DNA of 64,000 bases from Xanthobacteraceae bacterium (GTDB lineage Bacteria; Pseudomonadota; Alphaproteobacteria; Rhizobiales; Xanthobacteraceae), in NCBI GenBank assembly GCA_036522235.1, contig DATDGG010000191.1, positions 5,466 to 69,465 of the forward strand, given 5' to 3'. A program made the position numbers and the translations under genes. This document shows, in pieces, positions 33,240 through 43,723 of the stretch (within the stretch, counting starts at the first letter, position 1; each line of letters starts with the position of its first letter). The notes below the pieces were generated by a model that worked only from the letters and a program-made list of their open reading frames with translations, ran no database searches and was not told the DNA's origin.

Positions 33240-33454
33240 GTCGGTGCATAGACGGTCATGGGTTACTCCGTCGCTCGGCATCACCAGCTCGTCGTTGATC
33301 TTGTAGGTACTGGCTTGCGGTGCGTAGCCGTTGCAGCGGCGAATTTGGTCGCCCCGAGTTCCAATCTGAAGCATTTCGGTAACAGTCGCCAAAAAAATAT
33401 GCACGACTGCTTTGCCGAGTGGCATTTCATGCGGCTTGGGCGTAAACACGAACG

Positions 33455-33632
33455 CGGCTTCCGGCTTCAACGATGTCAGTCTCAGGGCGCGCTGACGTTT
33501 CTTCGGAGGTCAAGCGGGGCGAGAAGAGAAAAATCATCCCTCTCACCCCACTCGGCTGTGACACGCTGCCGGAAGGTTGCCCCATTGCAAGTGTCGGCCT
33601 CTTCGAAAGGCCAGCGACGACTCAAGTCGCGA
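33455..33632 (+). ncRNA. Candidate structured leader element, copy A (upstream of the beta-barrel gene)
   Basis: CTTCCGGC (33458-65) pairs with GCCGGAAG (33568-75), enclosing GTCAG/CTGAC and GGGGCGAGA/TCTCACCCC hairpins. GCGAC-loop-GTCGC at 33614-30. Block-wise alignment to 35527-35722. Confidence 0.45.
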
Positions 33633-33756
33633 CCGTGAAACTCCGGGCTCCTGCAACGCACGTCGTTGTGGGTGTTCTCGCCAATAGACATTGAAATCCA
33701 AGGGGGCCAACGAAGAATTGCGACACTTGTCAACGTCTGCATCGGAGGACACGCAG

Positions 33757-34665
33757 GTGACAAGAAAAACGCAAGTGACGAACAACTCGATTGTGTTGGC
33801 GACAGCATGCGCGATGTCGCTTTGCGCCACCGCCCCGGTTGCTTTGGCCGGGTCCGTCACACAGCCGGGTGAAACCGTGGGAGTTGCAGCCGGTGCTCCT
33901 CTCCCCGAGGGGCTCTATTTCGTCAACACCGCGGACTGGGGCAACAGGAGCGGCGTCAACACGGCTGTCGGCGTAGATATTCCGGTTGTTGCCTGGTCGA
34001 CTCCTTGGAAGATCTTCGGCGCCCGGGTGCAATTCTTGGCGGCTACGCCGGTGATCGAAGTCGGCGTCCACAATACGACTTATCTGCGCAGCATCTACAA
34101 TCCGCTCGTCTCCGGCCAATTGGCCTGGGACCTCGGAAACGGATGGGGCTTCAGCTATTTGCTTGGGGCCTACTTTGACGTGCATGAAGAGCTCGCCTGG
34201 AGCTCGACCTCGCTCAACCAGCGGTTCGCGCTGAGCTATGCTGGCAACGGCTGGAACCTCACCGCGAACCTCATCTACGGCATACAATTCGACAAGGTCA
34301 CGGGTCGACCGCAAATATCGCCGTGTCCAGTCCCGTTTGGATTGAATGGTTGCAATCCGGACTTCCTGAACGTCGACCTGACGGCGACCAAGAGTTTCGG
34401 CAAGTGGGCGATCGGTCCGGTTGCCTTCGGCTCTACCGATTTGACCACGCCGATTGCCGGCTATCAGAGGCAAAGCCAGTTCGCCTTGGGTGGCCTCGTG
34501 GGATACGACTTCGGTCCGATCACCGTGCAAGGCTACGTTACTTCGGACGTGTACGAGAAAAATTATGGCGGCTTTGACACCCGCGTGTGGGGGCGATTGA
34601 TCATCCCCATCTGGAATCCTGCAGCTCCGGCTCCAGCGCCAAAGCCGCTTTATCGGAAAGGCTGA
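33757..34665 (+). CDS. Outer-membrane beta-barrel protein (phenol-degradation MetA-like / transporter family, tentative)
   Basis: GTG at 33757 is 7 nt after GGAGGA. Signal peptide ...ATACAMSLCATAPVALA. Alternating beta-strand pattern with an aromatic C-terminal strand (RVWGRLIIPIW). Confidence 0.7.
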   Translation: MTRKTQVTNNSIVLATACAMSLCATAPVALAGSVTQPGETVGVAAGAPLPEGLYFVNTADWGNRSGVNTAVGVDIPVVAWSTPWKIFGARVQFLAATPVIEVGVHNTTYLRSIYNPLVSGQLAWDLGNGWGFSYLLGAYFDVHEELAWSSTSLNQRFALSYAGNGWNLTANLIYGIQFDKVTGRPQISPCPVPFGLNGCNPDFLNVDLTATKSFGKWAIGPVAFGSTDLTTPIAGYQRQSQFALGGLVGYDFGPITVQGYVTSDVYEKNYGGFDTRVWGRLIIPIWNPAAPAPAPKPLYRKG

Positions 34666-34687
34666 ATTCAGCCTGCCGACCAAGTCT

Positions 34688-34723
34688 GCCCGGACGCTCC
34701 GGCGTCCGGGCGTCTTTTGGTTT
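34688..34723 (+). terminator. Rho-independent terminator after the beta-barrel gene
   Basis: Perfect 10-bp stem GCCCGGACGC-tccg-GCGTCCGGGC followed by GTCTTTTGGTTT. Confidence 0.8.
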
Positions 34724-34832
34724 CGGCAATCGGCGGCCGAATGTCGGCGAGCAGCGAGCCACTTGAGCGCATTCTTTGAGCGCATATGATGATGGCGCGC
34801 AAGATCGTGTGCTTGTCCGACGTTGTCCTCGG

Positions 34833-35201
34833 ATGTTCGCGATGACGCTCATTGAAGCTGCACGGGGCTTCGGCTTGGTGCTCACGGCGGTGGCCGGTGT
34901 CGCCGCTCCAATCGCCGCGGCCGAGCTCAACGATTATCCCACCGCGGCACGCGCCGACTACGTGTTCGCCTGCATGAAGACAAACGGTGAGACGCGGCAG
35001 GCCTTGGAGCGGTGTTCATGCTCCATCGACGTGATCGCATCAATCCTGCCCTACGACCGCTATGTCGCGGCGGAAACCGTCCTGAGCTTGTCGCAGGTGC
35101 CGGGCCGGTTCGGTGCCATGTTCCAGACGCCCGAACAGGCCAAAATGGCAACCAATGAGCTCCGGCGTGCGCAGGCCGAGGCCGAGGTTCGTTGTTTCTA
35201 G
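34833..35201 (+). CDS. Hypothetical exported Cys-containing protein
   Basis: MFAMTLIEAARGFGLVLTAVAGVAAPIAAA signal-like N-terminus. Conserved-looking ACMKTNG...LERCSCSIDV...EVRCF. No family assigned. Confidence 0.55.
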   Translation: MFAMTLIEAARGFGLVLTAVAGVAAPIAAAELNDYPTAARADYVFACMKTNGETRQALERCSCSIDVIASILPYDRYVAAETVLSLSQVPGRFGAMFQTPEQAKMATNELRRAQAEAEVRCF

Positions 35202-35415: not shown

Positions 35416-35526
35416 AAATGGCCACGAAGAGGCTTGCTCCCCCAAGGCAACGTGGAACGCGGCGGGGGCGATTTGACACAAGGTTTCTGTTGCGGTCGGC
35501 GAAAGGCGGACATAGACTTTTGGTTA

Positions 35527-35722
35527 CGGTTTCCGGCTTCAAGAACGTCAGCTCATCGGGAATCCTGACGTTTCTTCGTAGGTTGGGCGGGGCACAAGCG
35601 CAGATGCCCCTCGTGCCTCGCTACGCTGTGACACGCTGCCGGAAACTCTTCCCATCCAAACGGGTGCCGACACGCGGCACTGTGAGTGTTGTCGTGTCGA
35701 TCCACTCGCGACAAAAGTCGCA
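35527..35722 (+). ncRNA. Candidate structured leader element, copy B (xoxF 5' region)
   Basis: TTTCCGGC (35530-37) pairs with GCCGGAAA (35638-45), enclosing (C)GTCAG/CTGAC(G) and GGGGCA/TGCCCC hairpins. GCGAC-aaaa-GTCGC at 35708-21 ends 1 nt before the SD GGGAGG. Confidence 0.45.
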
Positions 35723-35733
35723 GGGAGGTCTTG

Positions 35734-37542
35734 ATGCGCAATTTTCTGCTCACAACCTGCTTCAGCGCCGCCGCAGTGTTCACTGCGAGCGCCGCTCTTG
35801 CCAACGACGAACTGATTCGAATGTCGCAGAACCCGAAAGATTGGGTGATGCCGACAGGAAACTACGCCAACCACCGCTATTCCGAGCTCAAGCAGATCAA
35901 CGCTCAAAATGTCGGGAAGCTGCAGGTGGCATGGACATTCTCGACCGGCGTCCTGCGTGGTCACGAAGGCGGGCCGCTGGTGATCGGCGATGTGATGTAT
36001 GTCCATGGTCCGTTCCCGAACCCGGTCTTCGCACTGGACCTGAACAACGACGGCAAGATCCTCTGGAAGTACGAGCCCAAGCAGGATCCCAATGTCATTC
36101 CCGTCATGTGTTGCGATACGGTCAATCGCGGCCTCGCGTATGCCGACGGGAAGATCTTTCTGCATCAGGCCGATACCTCGCTGATCGCGCTCGATGCCAA
36201 GACCGGAAAGGTCGTCTGGCAGGCCAAGAACGGCGATCCGTCGAAAGGCGAGACCGGCACGTCGGCCCCCGTCGTGATCAAGGACAAAGTCCTGGTCGGC
36301 ATCTCGGGCGGCGAGTTCGGGGTGGCATGTCACGTGACCGCCTACGATCTCAAGACCGGCAAGCAAGTGTGGCGGGGCTCCTCGCAGGGCTCGGACGACC
36401 TGCTGCTCGTTGACCCCGAGAAGACCACCGAACTCGGCAAGCCGATCGGCAAGGATTCGAGCCTGAAGACCTGGCAGGGCGATCAGTGGAAGACCGGCGG
36501 TGGCTGCACCTGGGGCTGGATTTCCTACGATCCCCAGCTGAACCTCATCTACTATGGTTCGGGCAACCCCTCGACCTGGAATCCGAAACAGCGCCCCGGC
36601 GATAACAAGTGGTCGATGACCATTTGGGCGCGCGACCCTGACACCGGAATGGCCAAGTGGGTCTATCAGATGACGCCCCATGACGAATGGGACTTCGACG
36701 GCGTCAATGAGATGATCCTCGCCGACCAGAACATCGGCAACGCCATGCGCAAGACTCTCGTTCACTTCGATCGAAACGGCTTCGCCTATACGCTCGACCG
36801 CACGAACGGAGAGTTGCTGGTAGCCGAGAAATTCGACCCGAAGGTCAACTGGGCCACCAAGATCGACATGGACAAGAATTCGAAGACCTACGGTCGCCCG
36901 CAGGTCGTCTCCCAGTACTCCACCGAGCAGAATGGTCCGGACGTAAACACGAAGGGCATCTGCCCGGCGGCACTCGGCAGCAAAGACGAGCAGCCGGCAG
37001 CCTTTTCACCATCCACCGGTCTGTTCTACGTGCCGACCAACCACGTCTGCATGGACTATGAGCCGTTCCGGGTGAGCTACACGGCGGGCCAGCCCTATGT
37101 CGGGGCGACGCTGTCGATGTATCCGCCTTCCGGTGACACCCACATGGGGAACTTCGTTGCCTGGGATGCGCGCACCGGCAAGGTCGCGTGGTCGAACAAA
37201 GAACAGTTCTCGGTCTGGTCGGGTGCTCTGGCGACCGCCGGCGATGTCGTCTTTTACGGAACGCTCGAAGGCTATCTCAAGGCGGTTGATGCCAAGACCG
37301 GCAAGGAACTCTACAAGTTCAAGACGCCGTCCGGCATCATCGGCAACGTGACGACCTATGAGCACGGCGGCCGGCAATACATCGCGATCCTGTCCGGCGT
37401 CGGCGGCTGGGCTGGTATCGGTCTCGCGGCGGGACTGACGAATCCGACCGACGGCCTGGGTGCTGTCGGTGGCTATGCTGCCCTGCGCAATTACACGTCG
37501 TTGGGCGGCCAGCTCACGGTGTTTGCGCTGCCGGCAAACTGA
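35734..37542 (+). CDS. xoxF: Lanthanide-type PQQ methanol dehydrogenase XoxF
   Basis: Signal peptide [23 protein letters not shown]. Vicinal CC (VMCCDTV). [12 protein letters not shown] carries the extra Asp (codon 36697-36699) that marks XoxF rather than MxaF (DYAG). Eight-blade PQQ propeller throughout. Confidence 0.96.
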
Positions 37543-39209: not shown

Positions 39210-39824
39210 TCACTCGAGCGAGTGTTGGATTTCACGGGCCAGCGCAAACAAGCGTTGCTCGACGAGAACCGGCACCTCGCAGACATAGCCGATCGTCTTG
39301 CGCCGCTCCTCGAAGATGCGCGTATCCCACTCGATGCGGCTGGCCATTTCGTCGACTCTACTCTGGTCGCGATCAACCGCATCGTGAAGGTCACGAAGTT
39401 GGAGCGTCTCGGAGCGAATATCGTCGGCGAGTTTTTTTTGCTGTCGAAAAAAGCGCTCGATGCCGTTCATTATCTGGCTACGTTCCTGATTGAGGGAGTT
39501 GAATAGTCCTGCAAAAATGAGCTTCGCCTTTTGCTGCCGCTCCGCTGCGCTGCCGTCGATGAAGTCTGAAATTGCCTTCTCGGCTTCCTTGAGCGGCGTG
39601 CGCCGCGAGGCAAGACGCGCGACGAGATCGCTGATGGCCGGGTCCTGCCGCCAAGCGTTCTCGACGTCATCGATGGATGGACCTGCCCACACGGCGGCGA
39701 CCGAGATTTCCGGCACCTTGATCTGAACGCACGGCCAGTCGGGAAAACGCGGATCGGCGGCCAGGGCGACGCCCCTCAAGGCGACCTCCAAGACAATGGC
39801 CATGAAAAGGTACGAACACCTCAT
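39210..39824 (-). CDS. Hypothetical exported coiled-coil protein, translationally coupled to the ABC permease
   Basis: ATGA overlap with the permease stop (39821-39824). Signal-like MRCSYLFMAIVLEVALRGVALAA. Helical, charged C-terminal half. No family recognised. Confidence 0.6.
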   Translation of the reverse strand: MRCSYLFMAIVLEVALRGVALAADPRFPDWPCVQIKVPEISVAAVWAGPSIDDVENAWRQDPAISDLVARLASRRTPLKEAEKAISDFIDGSAAERQQKAKLIFAGLFNSLNQERSQIMNGIERFFRQQKKLADDIRSETLQLRDLHDAVDRDQSRVDEMASRIEWDTRIFEERRKTIGYVCEVPVLVEQRLFALAREIQHSLE

Positions 39825-40675
39825 ACGCCGCCTCCGGGCTCGCCGCGGCGCGCAAGAAATCCGCGTGACGGATCGTAGGCGAGGATCGCGCCCACCATGA
39901 ACAGCGCCGTGCATCCACCAACAACCGCAAGCGAGACCCAATTGACCTCGCCGTAAAGTGCGAAGCGGACAAGCTCGACCGCGTGGGTGAACGGGTTGAG
40001 TTCGCATATATAATAAAGCAGCGGGCTTCCTTCCCTCACGCGCCACAGCGGATAAAGTGCCGACGAGGCAAAGAACATAGGGAAGATCACAAAATTCATT
40101 GCGCCGGCAAAATTCTCAAGCTGCTTGCTGACTGATGACATGAGCATGCCCAGCGCGCCCAACATTAGACCTGACAGGACTAAAGCCGGCAATGCGGTGA
40201 TATATCCAAGGAGTGGCGGCTCGATTTCCCAGAACCATGCAATGGCGAGGAATGTATAGACCTGCGGTAACCCCACCGCCATGCCGGCCACGAGCTTCGA
40301 CGAAAGGAGAAACCACCGCGGCAATGGACTCACGAGAAGCGTGCGCATGTTGCCCATTTCGCGATCCCAGACCATGGACAACGACGACTGCATTCCGTTG
40401 AATAGCTGGATCAGCAGGATCAATCCGGGCGTGATGTAAACTTCATAGAGCACATAGGTCTCGTAGGGCGGTATGATGGACACGCCGAGCACCTGCCGGA
40501 AACCGGTAGCGAAAATAAAGAGCCACACCAGCGGGCGCACGAGCGCGGCCACAAAGCGTTCGCGTTGGTGCAAGAAGCGCAGACCCTCCCGCCAAACGAT
40601 CCCCTCGAGGCAGATCGCGTATTGGATCGGCGAGAAGCCGGTAAGCCGCGAGGAACTGGCCAGGTCAACGGTCAT
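39821..40675 (-). CDS. ABC-2 type permease (PedC/alcohol-ABC type)
   Basis: 284 aa with about 6 TM segments. ABC-2 layout. ATGA overlap with the ATPase gene. Confidence 0.9.
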   Translation of the reverse strand: MTVDLASSSRLTGFSPIQYAICLEGIVWREGLRFLHQRERFVAALVRPLVWLFIFATGFRQVLGVSIIPPYETYVLYEVYITPGLILLIQLFNGMQSSLSMVWDREMGNMRTLLVSPLPRWFLLSSKLVAGMAVGLPQVYTFLAIAWFWEIEPPLLGYITALPALVLSGLMLGALGMLMSSVSKQLENFAGAMNFVIFPMFFASSALYPLWRVREGSPLLYYICELNPFTHAVELVRFALYGEVNWVSLAVVGGCTALFMVGAILAYDPSRGFLARRGEPGGGV

Positions 40676-41451
40676 GAGGCCTCGGGTGCGGATTGCGATG
40701 GAACTCCTTGCGTCAACCGGGTGAAAGCTGCGCGGAGATCTTGGGCGCCTGCGACCTCCAGCAGGCGTGCGACCGAGCCGTGCTCAAGCACCCGCCCTTG
40801 GTGCAGGACGATGACGTCGTCATCATCCGAGACTTCGTCGATGAGATGCGTGGCCCAGAGCACGGAGACGCCGTCGTCGACGATAAGTCGGCGTACATGG
40901 TCGAGGATATCGGCCCTCGAGTTGATGTCGAGGCCTACCGTTGGCTCGTCGAGCACGAGCAGGCGCGGCCGATGCAACAGCGCCCGGGCAATCTCGACAC
41001 GCCGCATCTGGCCGCCGGACAAGCTACGCACCTTGTCTTGCGCACGGTCCGACAGCGCAACACGCGCGAGCACATCATCGGCGCGCGCGCGGGCTTCCTT
41101 CTTGCCGATGCCGTGCAGAGCTGCATGATACCTCAAGTTCTGGATGACGGAGAGATCGAGGTCGAGCGTGCGCGGCTGGAATACGACGCCGACCATTCGC
41201 AATGCCTCGCTCGACGCACGTCCGACATCGTGACCGAAAATCCGGATGCGGCCGCGCTGGATGGCGTAGAGACGCATCATGAGCGAGAACAACGTGCTTT
41301 TTCCCGCCCCGTTGAGGCCGAGCAGAACCGCGAAGGTCGATGGCGCAATAGAGCAGCTCACATCGTCGAGCGCCTGGCGAGCGCCGTAGAAATGGCTCAC
41401 GCTCTCGATCATGACGGCAGGCGGCGTGACCGCCTTCATTCCGTGCATCAT
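40672..41451 (-). CDS. ABC transporter ATP-binding protein (PQQ-dehydrogenase-associated type)
   Basis: Walker A GLNGAGKST, signature LSGGQMRR, Walker B LLVLDEPT. Start taken at MMHGMK (41451); the ORF is open to 41550. Confidence 0.92.
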   Translation of the reverse strand: MMHGMKAVTPPAVMIESVSHFYGARQALDDVSCSIAPSTFAVLLGLNGAGKSTLFSLMMRLYAIQRGRIRIFGHDVGRASSEALRMVGVVFQPRTLDLDLSVIQNLRYHAALHGIGKKEARARADDVLARVALSDRAQDKVRSLSGGQMRRVEIARALLHRPRLLVLDEPTVGLDINSRADILDHVRRLIVDDGVSVLWATHLIDEVSDDDDVIVLHQGRVLEHGSVARLLEVAGAQDLRAAFTRLTQGVPSQSAPEAS

Positions 41452-41554
41452 GCCGGCCTCCGGTCCTGCCGATGCTCGCCGAGGAACAACCGACAGCCAC
41501 ATTTGCAAACAATCAAATCGCTCCTTCGACCAGCGTGAAGTAGGCGACACGATG

Positions 41555-42523
41555 TCACTGCCGCGAGATCGCGACGCCCCAAGGCAGCTCGCCCACCTGG
41601 ATCGTCTTGACGACTTTGAGGCTGGCGACGTCGATGATAGACACGTCGTTCGAAACGCCGTTGGTCGTCAGAAGCAATTTCTCGTCCGGGGTGAACGCCA
41701 TGTGCCAAACCCGCTGGCCGACCAACAGGTATTTCTGAACCTCATGGGTGGCACCGTTGATGACGGCGACACGATTGGCAGGACCGAGCGCCACAAATCC
41801 GGTCTTGCCGTCCCGGGTGATGCTGATCCCGACGGCCTGGATGGCTTCCTTGCGCAGCCCAGCTATATCGAAGGTGATCTTCTTCGTCACCTGGTGCTTG
41901 ACCGGGTCGATGACGCTGACCGTTCCGCCGACTTCGGACGAAACCCAAAGCTCGGAGCCGTCACGTTTGAACTCCGCGAAACGGGGGCGCGAATCGACAA
42001 GCACATTGGCGACAATCTGGCGCGTTTCGGTGTCGATGAAATGCGCCATGTTGGTCGTCTCGGACGTGTTGACCAGGATCTTGCCGTCCGGACTGATGCC
42101 CATGCCTTCCGGCTCGACTCCAACCTGCACCTCGCCAAGCGGAACGCGTTTCTCCATGTCAATGATCGTGACGGTATTATCGTTCTCGTTGGCGACATAG
42201 AGGATCTTGCCGGTCGGATCCTGGGTGAAGAGCTCGGGATCGGGGCCCGACGGCAGCGTGGCGACGATCTCGTGCGTATTCGTATCGATCATTTGAATCG
42301 TATCGTCATCGCCAACCGCAACCAGGATGAACTTTCCATCCTTTGTCAATTCGATGCCGCGCGGTCTTTGGCCGACCTTGATGGTCTTGACGAGCGCGAG
42401 CTTGTCCACATCGATCACGCTGATCGTGTTGCTCTTCTCGTTCGAAATATAGGCGATGACGGCGCCCGCTTGAGTGCCGAGCAAGATGAAGAGGCCAGTA
42501 CCGAGCAGGGTGGCGCGCCACAT
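41555..42523 (-). CDS. YVTN-type beta-propeller repeat protein (PQQ-catabolism-associated)
   Basis: Signal peptide. Repeated ~40-aa units (YISNEKSNTISVIDV..., YVANENDNTVTIIDM..., LTTNGVSNDVSIIDV...). Confidence 0.9.
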   Translation of the reverse strand: MWRATLLGTGLFILLGTQAGAVIAYISNEKSNTISVIDVDKLALVKTIKVGQRPRGIELTKDGKFILVAVGDDDTIQMIDTNTHEIVATLPSGPDPELFTQDPTGKILYVANENDNTVTIIDMEKRVPLGEVQVGVEPEGMGISPDGKILVNTSETTNMAHFIDTETRQIVANVLVDSRPRFAEFKRDGSELWVSSEVGGTVSVIDPVKHQVTKKITFDIAGLRKEAIQAVGISITRDGKTGFVALGPANRVAVINGATHEVQKYLLVGQRVWHMAFTPDEKLLLTTNGVSNDVSIIDVASLKVVKTIQVGELPWGVAISRQ

Positions 42524-42544
42524 TCTTGTCTTCCCCGTGGTCGG

Positions 42545-43723
42545 TTATTTGAGCTTGCACTTGCTCTCGGGCCGGTCGAATCCCAGCGTGTCCAGCTCTG
42601 ATACCTGATGCAGAAATCCTTCCTGTGGCGACACCGAAACGATCATCCTGCCGTCGGTCAGAAGGATGGGTTGGCGAAGTTGAAGATTCCAGTCTCGTAG
42701 CGTCAACCGCTGGCCTTTGAATGCGGCCAATGCGAATTCGGGGCCTTTGAGGAATTCGAGCATGACCTTTGGATCGGCCGAACCGGTTCGGGACGTGCTC
42801 TCGCCGATCATGCGCACCGCCGACCACGCCTGCATGTCGCGCGCGCTCATGCGCCGCGAGAACATTTTGACGAACCGGTCCTGCAGCTGCACCGCTCCCC
42901 ACTGGTCGTGAGAGGGATCCCAGCTGGTCGGGACCAGGCCCGCGGACCCGGCGACCGGTCTCGCATCCCAGGTCCGGTACGGCAGATAGGCCGCGAAGAC
43001 CTCATTCTCGTCCGCCGCCACCAGGACATCGTAGGCGGCTCCGACTTGCGTGAACACCGGCAGTTGGCGTTGAATCTGGACGACGCCGCTGTCGGTCCTG
43101 CGCGCCCCGCCGGTATCCTCGAAGACTTTCTCCTGAACAATTCGGGCCCCGAACCGCTTGGCTGCCCGTCGCAGCGCATCGGCATAGAGCCGGTCCTCGG
43201 CATGGGAGCCGACGATCAGCAGCCATCTGCGCCACTGTTTCCAGACCAGGTACTGTGCCAGTCCGTCGGCAAGCATCGATCGTGTTGGAGCGGTATGAAT
43301 CACGTTGGCACGGCAGTCCTCTTCGCGCAATCGATCGTCGATAGCGCCGACATTGAAGAAGAGGAGACCGCGCGGCGCCCCGGCATCGGCGGCCTTGAGG
43401 AGCGCGTCCGCCGGAAGATCGGCGATCACCAGCGAGGAGTCGCGCTCCGCCAATGCAATGCCCGCGGCTGCCGCATCGTCGGCTTCGGCGAGCCGTCGAT
43501 CCTCCAGCGAGAATTCCTGATTCAGGAACTTGCCGGTCGTGTTGTTGTCGTTGATTGCAAGCTGCGCGCCGGCGAGCCCGTCGTTTGCTGCCGGTATCTG
43601 GATCAGCGAGAGAGCGAGCTTCGGTTCCCAGTGCCGAAGATAGCCGACCCTGATTTCGGCAGCATCGGCTGAGGCTGATGTCCAGGCCAGGAGTATGATT
43701 CCGGCTGACAGGACGCGCATCAA
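42545..43723 (-). CDS. Periplasmic substrate-binding protein (LivJ-like, PQQ-dehydrogenase-system type)
   Basis: Signal peptide MMRVLSAGIILLAWTSASA. Type-I SBP fold pattern. First gene of the operon. Confidence 0.88.
   Translation of the reverse strand: MMRVLSAGIILLAWTSASADAAEIRVGYLRHWEPKLALSLIQIPAANDGLAGAQLAINDNNTTGKFLNQEFSLEDRRLAEADDAAAAGIALAERDSSLVIADLPADALLKAADAGAPRGLLFFNVGAIDDRLREEDCRANVIHTAPTRSMLADGLAQYLVWKQWRRWLLIVGSHAEDRLYADALRRAAKRFGARIVQEKVFEDTGGARRTDSGVVQIQRQLPVFTQVGAAYDVLVAADENEVFAAYLPYRTWDARPVAGSAGLVPTSWDPSHDQWGAVQLQDRFVKMFSRRMSARDMQAWSAVRMIGESTSRTGSADPKVMLEFLKGPEFALAAFKGQRLTLRDWNLQLRQPILLTDGRMIVSVSPQEGFLHQVSELDTLGFDRPESKCKLK

Follow-up and report, generated by a model that had tools for sequence, protein, structure and literature searches.

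Two copies of one leader at a xoxF locus

We analyzed a 64,000-nt stretch of a Xanthobacteraceae genome ("the window"; the assembly it belongs to spans 5.99 Mb in 612 contigs and is 95% complete), in which an element of ~135 nt occurs twice, both times on the forward strand (33454–33588, + and 35526–35658, +). The second copy ends 76 nt upstream of the ATG (35734) of xoxF (35734–37542, +), and the first precedes an open reading frame (ORF; 33757–34665, +) for a 302-amino-acid (aa) protein with a signal peptide, a predicted outer-membrane beta-barrel that we call the barrel. A covariance model of the element (R1) scored the xoxF copy at 128.9 bits and the barrel copy at 100.7 bits (E 3e-24). 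The two copies can be aligned over ~135 nt, with long identical blocks and differences that appear compensatory, and a search of all 612 contigs with BLAST and the covariance model did not find a third copy. An initial annotation of this DNA had described only two copies in 64 kb, placed ahead of xoxF and of a signal-peptide barrel gene with a strong terminator, in a window without a TonB-dependent receptor; our searches confirmed this arrangement in every part, and the count of two holds for the whole assembly.

The barrel gene may be transcribed from a promoter-like site at 33419–33447 (+), read from the sequence as a −35 element GTGGCA, a 17-nt spacer, and a −10 element GTAAAC, which stops ~7 nt ahead of the leader. 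An alignment with the barrel leader of L039, from another genome, gives TTGGCA-N17-TATAAT as its positional homologue. The aptamer-like domain of the leader (33454–33588, +) is followed by an expression platform (33589–33756, +) containing a G-tract, CUCCUGCA, and a Shine–Dalgarno (SD) sequence. The barrel ORF begins with a GTG codon 7 nt past the GGAGGA of the SD, and its transcript would end at an intrinsic terminator (34687–34722, +), in which a G-C-rich stem of 11 bp (34687–34712, nine G-C pairs) is succeeded by TCTTTTGGTT; the sequence right after the stem, with its T-run, is TCTTTTGG.

The xoxF product is a dehydrogenase of the pyrroloquinoline quinone (PQQ)-dependent methanol/ethanol family, matching TIGR03075 with 787 bits, and its orthologues in the bacterial family are 78–87% identical. 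It has the Asp-x-Asp signature (D320-F-D322), an extra Asp two residues past the catalytic Asp that is typical of lanthanide-dependent enzymes and that we take to place this XoxF among them. Downstream of xoxF lie a cytochrome c gene and then a gene for an SBP_bac_3 protein, in the positions of xoxG and xoxJ.

The element is a structured and covarying RNA

The element is a structured RNA leader that forms a three-way junction (P1, P2, and P3) with a pseudoknot. In the barrel copy, P1 pairs 33457–33465 with 33568–33576, P2 pairs 33472–33480 with 33491–33499, and P3 spans 33504–33563. The pseudoknot joins GGGC in the P2 loop (33485–33488) to GCCC in the tail (33579–33582). Across the family alignment, the outer helix P1 consists of UUUCCGGC and GCCGGAAA, the P2 hairpin loop always contains GGGR, and a C-rich tail stands immediately 3′ of P1. 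P3 is composite: UCGnARGY base-pairs with part of the near-invariant GCUGUGACACGCUG, and its tip, formed by unrelated sequences that vary freely in length, is a hairpin in every leader. The most conserved part is an 11-nt strand, GUGACACGCUG, found at 33558–33568 in the barrel copy and invariant in 50 of 51 leaders.

The loop of P2 and the tail change together, as GGGAA/UUCCC, GGGAU/AUCCC, or GGGC/GCCC, and these joint changes point to a pseudoknot. The window itself holds a compensatory pair of this kind, with GGGAA/UUCCC in the xoxF leader and GGGC/GCCC in the barrel leader. In an alignment of 29 leaders made by MAFFT, which is blind to structure, 93% of the cells formed standard pairs, compared with 40–58% once the 3′ partners were slid by one to three columns. 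Sixteen pairs were altered on both sides, and none of 500 shuffles attained any of the five measures used. The alignment of 51 leaders by R1, which leans towards the structure, gave 91.8% pairing (35–55% when slid) and changes on both sides in 30 of 39 pairs. The helices contain many G-U pairs, which ties the fold to the sense strand.

A search of Rfam 15 (4227 families) gave no relevant match at E values up to 10, either with 4 kb of the locus or with each leader alone. We likewise found no paper describing this RNA or a link between the barrel and xoxF in the literature that we could search, an incomplete library that cannot prove novelty. The leader is a new, unclassified regulatory RNA motif, and a link between a COG4313 channel, the type to which we assign the barrel below, and XoxF appears to be previously undescribed in the searchable literature.

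The leader precedes xoxF and outer-membrane protein genes

We searched 301 genomes of the same family at the DNA level and recovered the element in 30 genomes from 13 genera. At all 30 loci it lies ~80 nt ahead of the start codon of a xoxF-type gene, just 3′ of a promoter-like site, TTGCGG-N17-TAGACT. This site has an A-rich spacer, is found directly upstream (~10–45 nt) of nearly all xoxF leaders, and occupies 35490–35520 in the window. Five other families of the order contributed seven loci with the leader ahead of xoxF, and a filtered pattern scan of metagenome contigs added 38 xoxF loci, two barrel loci, and one porin-like locus. The pattern alone produced many chance matches (33 of 38 doubtful pattern loci had no model match), and metagenome matches were counted only if confirmed by the model or adjacent to xoxF. 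Across the 30 family, 7 other-family, and 38 metagenome loci, the distance from the element to the xoxF-type gene is ~80–165 nt, and overall the leader stands ahead of xoxF in more than 70 cases.

Genes other than xoxF are also preceded by the leader. Applied to 151 genomes of the family, model R1 returned 39 matches in 26 genomes, those outside xoxF being 11 barrel orthologues, one TonB-dependent receptor (809 aa), and one divergent Phenol_MetA_deg protein, the last with a weak score (36 bits). The 11 barrel orthologues have a common mature N-terminus, GSVTQPGETVG, and at least 63% identity. A protein search of the same 151 genomes identified 12 barrel orthologues at this level of identity, 11 of them with the leader. 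None of the more distant paralogues found (40–47% identity) had a leader match; with the search filters off, the leader was still missing from two of these paralogues and from the one exceptional orthologue, that of genome G067. Every sampled genome with a barrel orthologue also has a leader-bearing xoxF.

A collection with one genome per species yielded 80 barrel loci, and the leader was directly upstream of the barrel gene in 35 of the 78 that could be assessed. The GUGACACGCUG core was present in 34 of these (with one substitution in two of them), and the remaining one was a weak match without the core. All 35 belong to Xanthobacteraceae-like lineages, including Pseudolabrys, Xanthobacter, and many uncultured genomes. 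The Xanthobacter examples include loci L101, L111, L113, and L114, and this genus has leader-bearing xoxF genes as well. In the genomes carrying it, the leader occurs at most two or three times, always on the sense strand and directly 5′ of xoxF or of an outer-membrane protein gene, 76–350 nt from the start codon and with a promoter-like site just 5′ of it. It is thus not a generic repeat, a concern that the initial annotation had raised. The same annotation had looked to synteny with xoxF in relatives, and here the outcome was divided: physical proximity to xoxF is uncommon (xoxF or xoxJ lies within 5 kb in 3 of the 80 barrel loci, one of which repeats the barrel, small ORF, and xoxF order of the window), while the association between leader and barrel is conserved.

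In a tree of the leaders, which is weakly resolved given their ~130 nt, the barrel leaders do not form one clade, and several fall beside the xoxF leader from their own genus. This pattern suggests that the leader was duplicated more than once, or that the two copies in a genome evolved in concert.

Two of these other targets are described here. In genome G054 (locus L041:3871–4119, −), the leader precedes the TonB-dependent receptor mentioned above, and a search of the sample found no barrel orthologue in that genome. This receptor matches only generic TonB-receptor profiles. In the window's own 6-Mb assembly we found no homologue of it; the window has no TonB-dependent receptor at all, and the whole assembly has one full gene and a fragment, on other contigs. 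Since G054 lacks a detectable barrel orthologue and the window's genome lacks a detectable homologue of the receptor, the two proteins appear to be alternatives for one and the same place under the leader. A soil metagenome contig (L163:608–2591, +) has the leader, at 95.5 bits, ahead of a gene whose secreted product of 559 aa has an N-terminal coiled coil and ends in TTFFW; this protein had no family match and looks porin-like. Besides XoxF, the leader's known targets therefore comprise up to four kinds of outer-membrane protein that are unrelated or only distantly related.

The G054 receptor leader has a shortened P3 and retains a SD and ATG of the xoxF type, followed by a mini-ORF of nine codons, which suggests that it was recently recruited from a xoxF leader. 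A gene for a MoxY-type histidine kinase (LapD_MoxY_N domain) lies just upstream of it (L041, 4843–6315).

The barrel resembles COG4313 channels

The predicted signal peptide of the barrel ends in APVALA, before GSVTQPGE, leaving a mature chain of 271 aa that starts with GSVTQPGETVG. The protein matches Pfam PF13557 (Phenol_MetA_deg) with 72.8 bits (cut-off 22, E 5.8e-20) over profile positions 15–240 of 242. An AlphaFold2 model built from 35 orthologues has 12 strands (predicted local distance difference test score, pLDDT, 78; predicted TM-score, pTM, 0.76). A sequence search of PDB chains gave no match, and only the fold search placed the protein: the best TM-score among PDB chains was that of 4rl8, the COG4313 channel Pput2725 (TMt 0.70, TMq 0.63). 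Profile search and structure prediction thus both agree with the earlier description of a signal-peptide beta-barrel, and we assign the protein, on its modeled fold, as a 12-stranded outer-membrane channel of the COG4313/Phenol_MetA_deg family. Its homologues number 1413, with soil metagenomes predominating.

Members of the COG4313 family are 12-stranded barrels whose N-terminal segment occludes the lumen, and they are tied to the uptake of hydrophobic molecules (PMC4493636). The barrel shares with Pput2725 of Pseudomonas putida F1 (PDB 4RL8), TcpY, and SphA the PF13557 domain, a 12-stranded fold, a mature chain (271 aa) within the 270–320 aa usual for the family, and a highly conserved N-terminal segment before strand 1. 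In the barrel this segment (residues 31–42) is invariant or nearly so among the 35 orthologues; it occludes the lumen in the family (PMC4493636), and the model places it here with low confidence (pLDDT below 50). The barrel differs from Pput2725 in sequence, with only 9–10% identity, and from the COG4313 channels in context: instead of phenol or aromatic catabolism, it is associated with XoxF, PQQ, and receptor genes and with an RNA leader.

The genomic neighborhoods of barrel orthologues illustrate this context. In addition to the three loci close to xoxF or xoxJ, another PQQ alcohol dehydrogenase adjoins the barrel in 4 of the 80 loci (in Xanthobacter, Methylobacterium, and Rhodomicrobium). 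The barrel directly follows pqqE in three loci that have no RNA leader (L132–L134), and five Acidocella-type loci, also leaderless, contain pqqE, a TonB-dependent receptor, and the barrel in a row (L141:1235–5732, +; L135, L137, L139, and L140). A receptor of the same subfamily stands beside the barrel in a Methylobacterium locus and a Rhodopila locus, and this subfamily is 39–48% identical, over the full length, to the leader-controlled receptor of G054. The presence of leaderless orthologues beside PQQ dehydrogenases, pqqE, and the receptor supports a role of the barrel as an envelope component linked to the dehydrogenase.

Xanthobacter autotrophicus (L088:2786–8597) has a second, leaderless barrel paralogue, divergent from a PQQ alcohol dehydrogenase other than XoxF (39% identical to XoxF). 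A gene for a hybrid histidine kinase follows this paralogue.

The tail may control access to the Shine–Dalgarno sequence

We examined how the folded domain could act on translation. The tail of the xoxF leader, CUCUUCCC, is the complement of the SD (GGGAGGA) and pairs with it in the unconstrained fold, where the SD is unpaired with a predicted probability of 0.01; locking the tail, as the pseudoknot would, raises this value to 0.26. For most barrel leaders, it is the SD itself that forms the exact complement of the tail. Locking the tail in 23 barrel leaders raised the mean predicted SD accessibility from 0.26 to 0.51 (mean +0.25), compared with a change of ~0.00 on locking other 10-nt windows, and the tail exceeded every control window in 13 of the 23. 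Overall, the tail sequesters the SD in silico in the xoxF leader and in 17 of the 23 barrel leaders. RNAalifold gave no usable consensus for MAFFT-aligned xoxF expression platforms.

The platform of the window's barrel copy is arranged differently. It contains a G-tract, GGGGGCC (33702–33708), complementary to the tail; CUCCUGCA (33648–33655), complementary to the SD region (33738–33747); and the SD GGAGGA (33744–33749). A relay from tail to G-tract to anti-SD to SD was considered for this platform and was borne out only in part, as the tail pairs with the G-tract in the unconstrained fold but the predicted SD accessibility hardly moves.

These predictions suggest the following mechanism. The folded domain, presumably stabilized by a ligand or another factor, would hold the C-rich tail in the pseudoknot and leave the SD free. 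In the unfolded domain, the tail (or the relay, in the window's barrel copy) would pair with the SD region. The leader would then be a translational ON-switch of the same polarity for xoxF and the barrel, and an ON-type translational switch is, on these models, the most likely mode of action. With one sensing domain shared by the two genes, the cell would produce XoxF and the channel in response to a common condition, and a small "XoxF support" regulon would have the channel as its outer-membrane component.

A shared leader for XoxF and a probable outer-membrane partner

The direct observations are the two copies in the window, an RNA structure with covariation, the family and fold of the barrel, and the associations of the leader with barrel and xoxF genes. 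From these we infer the start of transcription, the logic and direction of the switch, the existence of a ligand, and the cargo of the channel. We consider it probable that the barrel mRNA is headed by a second copy of XoxF's own structured leader, acting as an ON-like switch, and that the barrel is a co-produced channel of a regulon supporting XoxF. Judged from comparative genomics, co-regulation of the barrel with xoxF is well supported. A common regulon is what the initial annotation had proposed from the shared leader, and the associations of the leader with barrel and with xoxF genes, which are conserved, repeated, and independent of lineage, speak for it.

Several observations weigh against this reading. 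A consensus promoter-like site (TTGAAA-16-AAGAAT, 33691–33718, +) lies between the aptamer domain of the barrel leader and the start codon and, if active, could yield a leaderless barrel transcript. In the window's barrel copy, locking the tail changes SD accessibility little (0.52 to 0.66), and the tail (GCCCC) pairs best with GGGGGC (33702–33707), the G-tract that lies 40 nt ahead of the SD. The tail and the SD covary only marginally: the duplex energy is −11.4 kcal/mol for matched and −10.7 kcal/mol for permuted partners (p ~0.04, uncorrected for relatedness), a weakness that is expected of a partner constrained by the ribosome. The leader is absent from barrel orthologues outside Xanthobacteraceae-like lineages (Azospirillum, Skermanella, Acidocella, Methylobacterium, Methylopila, and others), and about one-third of the family's xoxF orthologues have none. 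Given these leaderless orthologues of both genes, the RNA would be an optional layer of control. Finally, the characterized COG4313 channels are tied to hydrophobic molecules and not to metal ions (PMC4493636).

The last point bears on the cargo, for which our best guess is a lanthanide species needed by XoxF. In Beijerinckiaceae strain RH AL1, the expression of a porin gene rises together with xoxF upon the addition of lanthanum, while that of lutH falls (PMC8316094). This porin, the replacement of the barrel by a receptor, and the clustering of both with pqq genes favor a scarce nutrient of PQQ dehydrogenases over bulk methanol, with a lanthanide species as the obvious candidate. The presence of a TonB-dependent receptor behind the leader in another genome, in the barrel's stead, makes methanol itself the least likely of the cargoes.

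Among the alternatives, the strongest accepts the co-regulation and differs in the cargo, which would be a hydrophobic or amphipathic organic compound, such as the alcohol substrate or the aldehyde product of a PQQ dehydrogenase. Its precedents come from within the protein family, where TcpY and SphA are linked to hydrophobic compounds and detergent is bound in Pput2725 (PMC4493636). The location of the barrel beside several different PQQ alcohol dehydrogenases, and not XoxF alone, is also in line with it. Against it stand the same leader on a TonB-dependent receptor where no barrel orthologue was found, and the fact that elsewhere, in different lineages, the barrel neighbors pqqE and receptors of that subfamily. 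Such receptors import scarce chelated nutrients and not bulk alcohols, and the usual assumption for methanol is that it crosses without a dedicated channel. We regard an organic cargo as possible, with a minority share of the probability.

A second alternative concerns the reader of the fold, which could be a protein or a small RNA, for example a CsrA-like protein recognizing the GGGA loop and the GGGAGG of the SD; co-regulation would remain, and there would be no riboswitch. Motifs containing GGA do occur at the SD and within the hairpin loop of P2, and many conserved leaders of similar size bind proteins. The joint changes of P2 loop and tail, however, fit an RNA–RNA tertiary pairing, the compactness of the junction and its invariant strand of 11 nt are features typically seen in ligand pockets, and the loci examined contained no candidate gene for a reader protein linked to the element. 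We judge such a reader unlikely, at about one chance in several. A little less likely again, in our estimate, is the specific proposal that the leader is a riboswitch aptamer for cytoplasmic lanthanide, as free ion or complex, and turns on XoxF together with the outer-membrane proteins through which the metal would enter (the COG4313 barrel here, a TonB-dependent receptor or a porin elsewhere); we offer it as a tentative idea.

It is also conceivable that the barrel, and the receptor replacing it, move PQQ itself, by uptake or release, with the leader tying the synthesis of the apo-dehydrogenase to the supply of cofactor. The barrel occurs with pqqE in the eight Acetobacteraceae-type loci described above (directly after it in three, with the receptor between them in five), and the best NCBIfam match of the leader-controlled receptor is PqqU. 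That match is far below threshold (84 bits for a cut-off of 1200), a pqqE gene (539 bits) is present in the window's genome, and the model search of the assembly did not place the leader on any pqq gene. We consider this account improbable.

More remote is the view that the block acts at the DNA level, as a shared promoter or operator for a transcription factor of a methanol-oxidation regulon, whose palindromic binding sites we see as helices. The arms of P1 and P2 are indeed inverted repeats, single-sequence predictions give good folds for either strand, and two-component regulators of xox and mxa genes are known from model methylotrophs. We rejected this view, leaving it very little probability, since the compensatory changes preserve pairing and not sequence in four helices and the pseudoknot, the many G-U pairs restrict the fold to one strand, P3b differs among leaders in both length and sequence, and the block lies 3′ of a conserved −35/−10 pair. 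Least credible of all, and likewise rejected, is the idea that the region upstream of xoxF was recently duplicated locally and that the barrel leader is a neutral relic of this event without a regulatory role: the two leaders are only 2 kb apart, some barrel leaders neighbor the xoxF leader of the same genus in trees, and the G054 receptor leader keeps a remnant of a xoxF SD and ATG, but barrel leaders retain all helices, the pseudoknot, and the near-invariant strand in ~35 species, with compensatory changes of their own, and mostly lie on other contigs or megabases away from xoxF.

Relation to known systems

To our knowledge, lanthanide sensing and outer-membrane passage are only partly known, with only protein regulators and TonB-dependent receptors implicated so far. 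The window contains a convergent operon (39821–43723) encoding a periplasmic binding protein, a YncE-like beta-propeller, an ABC ATPase, and an ABC-2 permease, and the initial annotation of a Ped/Lut-like inner-membrane ABC system was sound in this respect. The set resembles, beside xoxFGJ, the lut cluster of Methylorubrum extorquens (the TonB-dependent receptor LutH and an ABC transporter) and pedA1A2BC of Pseudomonas putida, the likeness being to the published descriptions of these systems. The leader-controlled TonB-dependent receptor of G054 is a second point of resemblance. The window differs from these systems in having a small, presumably passive 12-stranded barrel as its outer-membrane component and no detectable homologue of the leader-controlled receptor in the assembly.

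As an RNA, the leader is comparable to THF-I (RF01831) and to the metal riboswitches (M-box, yybP-ykoY, and czcD/NiCo) in being an upstream leader of ~135 nt with invariant unpaired nucleotides, and to THF-I-type aptamers in its three-way junction and loop–tail pseudoknot. A tail complementary to the SD and a set of several functionally related genes per genome are further features in common with riboswitches. Its conserved nucleotides are unlike those of THF-I and the metal riboswitches, it has no match in Rfam 15, and any ligand is presumed.

The shared, covarying RNA, absent from the RNA family library, defines a small candidate regulon that combines XoxF with one of several unrelated outer-membrane proteins. 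From it come a specific candidate for a XoxF-linked passage of the porin type and a 135-nt RNA open to a direct search for ligands, with Xanthobacter species such as X. autotrophicus or X. flavus as cultivable carriers. If the leader did sense lanthanides, it would be the first natural RNA sensor of an f-block element and an RNA layer of the "lanthanide switch" in soil Alphaproteobacteria. Even if its ligand is not a lanthanide, it would be a novel RNA element controlling an enzyme of methanol oxidation that is important worldwide.

One further gene lies between the barrel and xoxF. It is a small ORF (34776–35201, +) for a product of at most 141 aa that has four cysteines and an N-terminus resembling a signal peptide. 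This product had no Pfam or NCBIfam match, and the ORF is kept beside xoxF in two other barrel loci (L095 and L144), with 62–70% identity.

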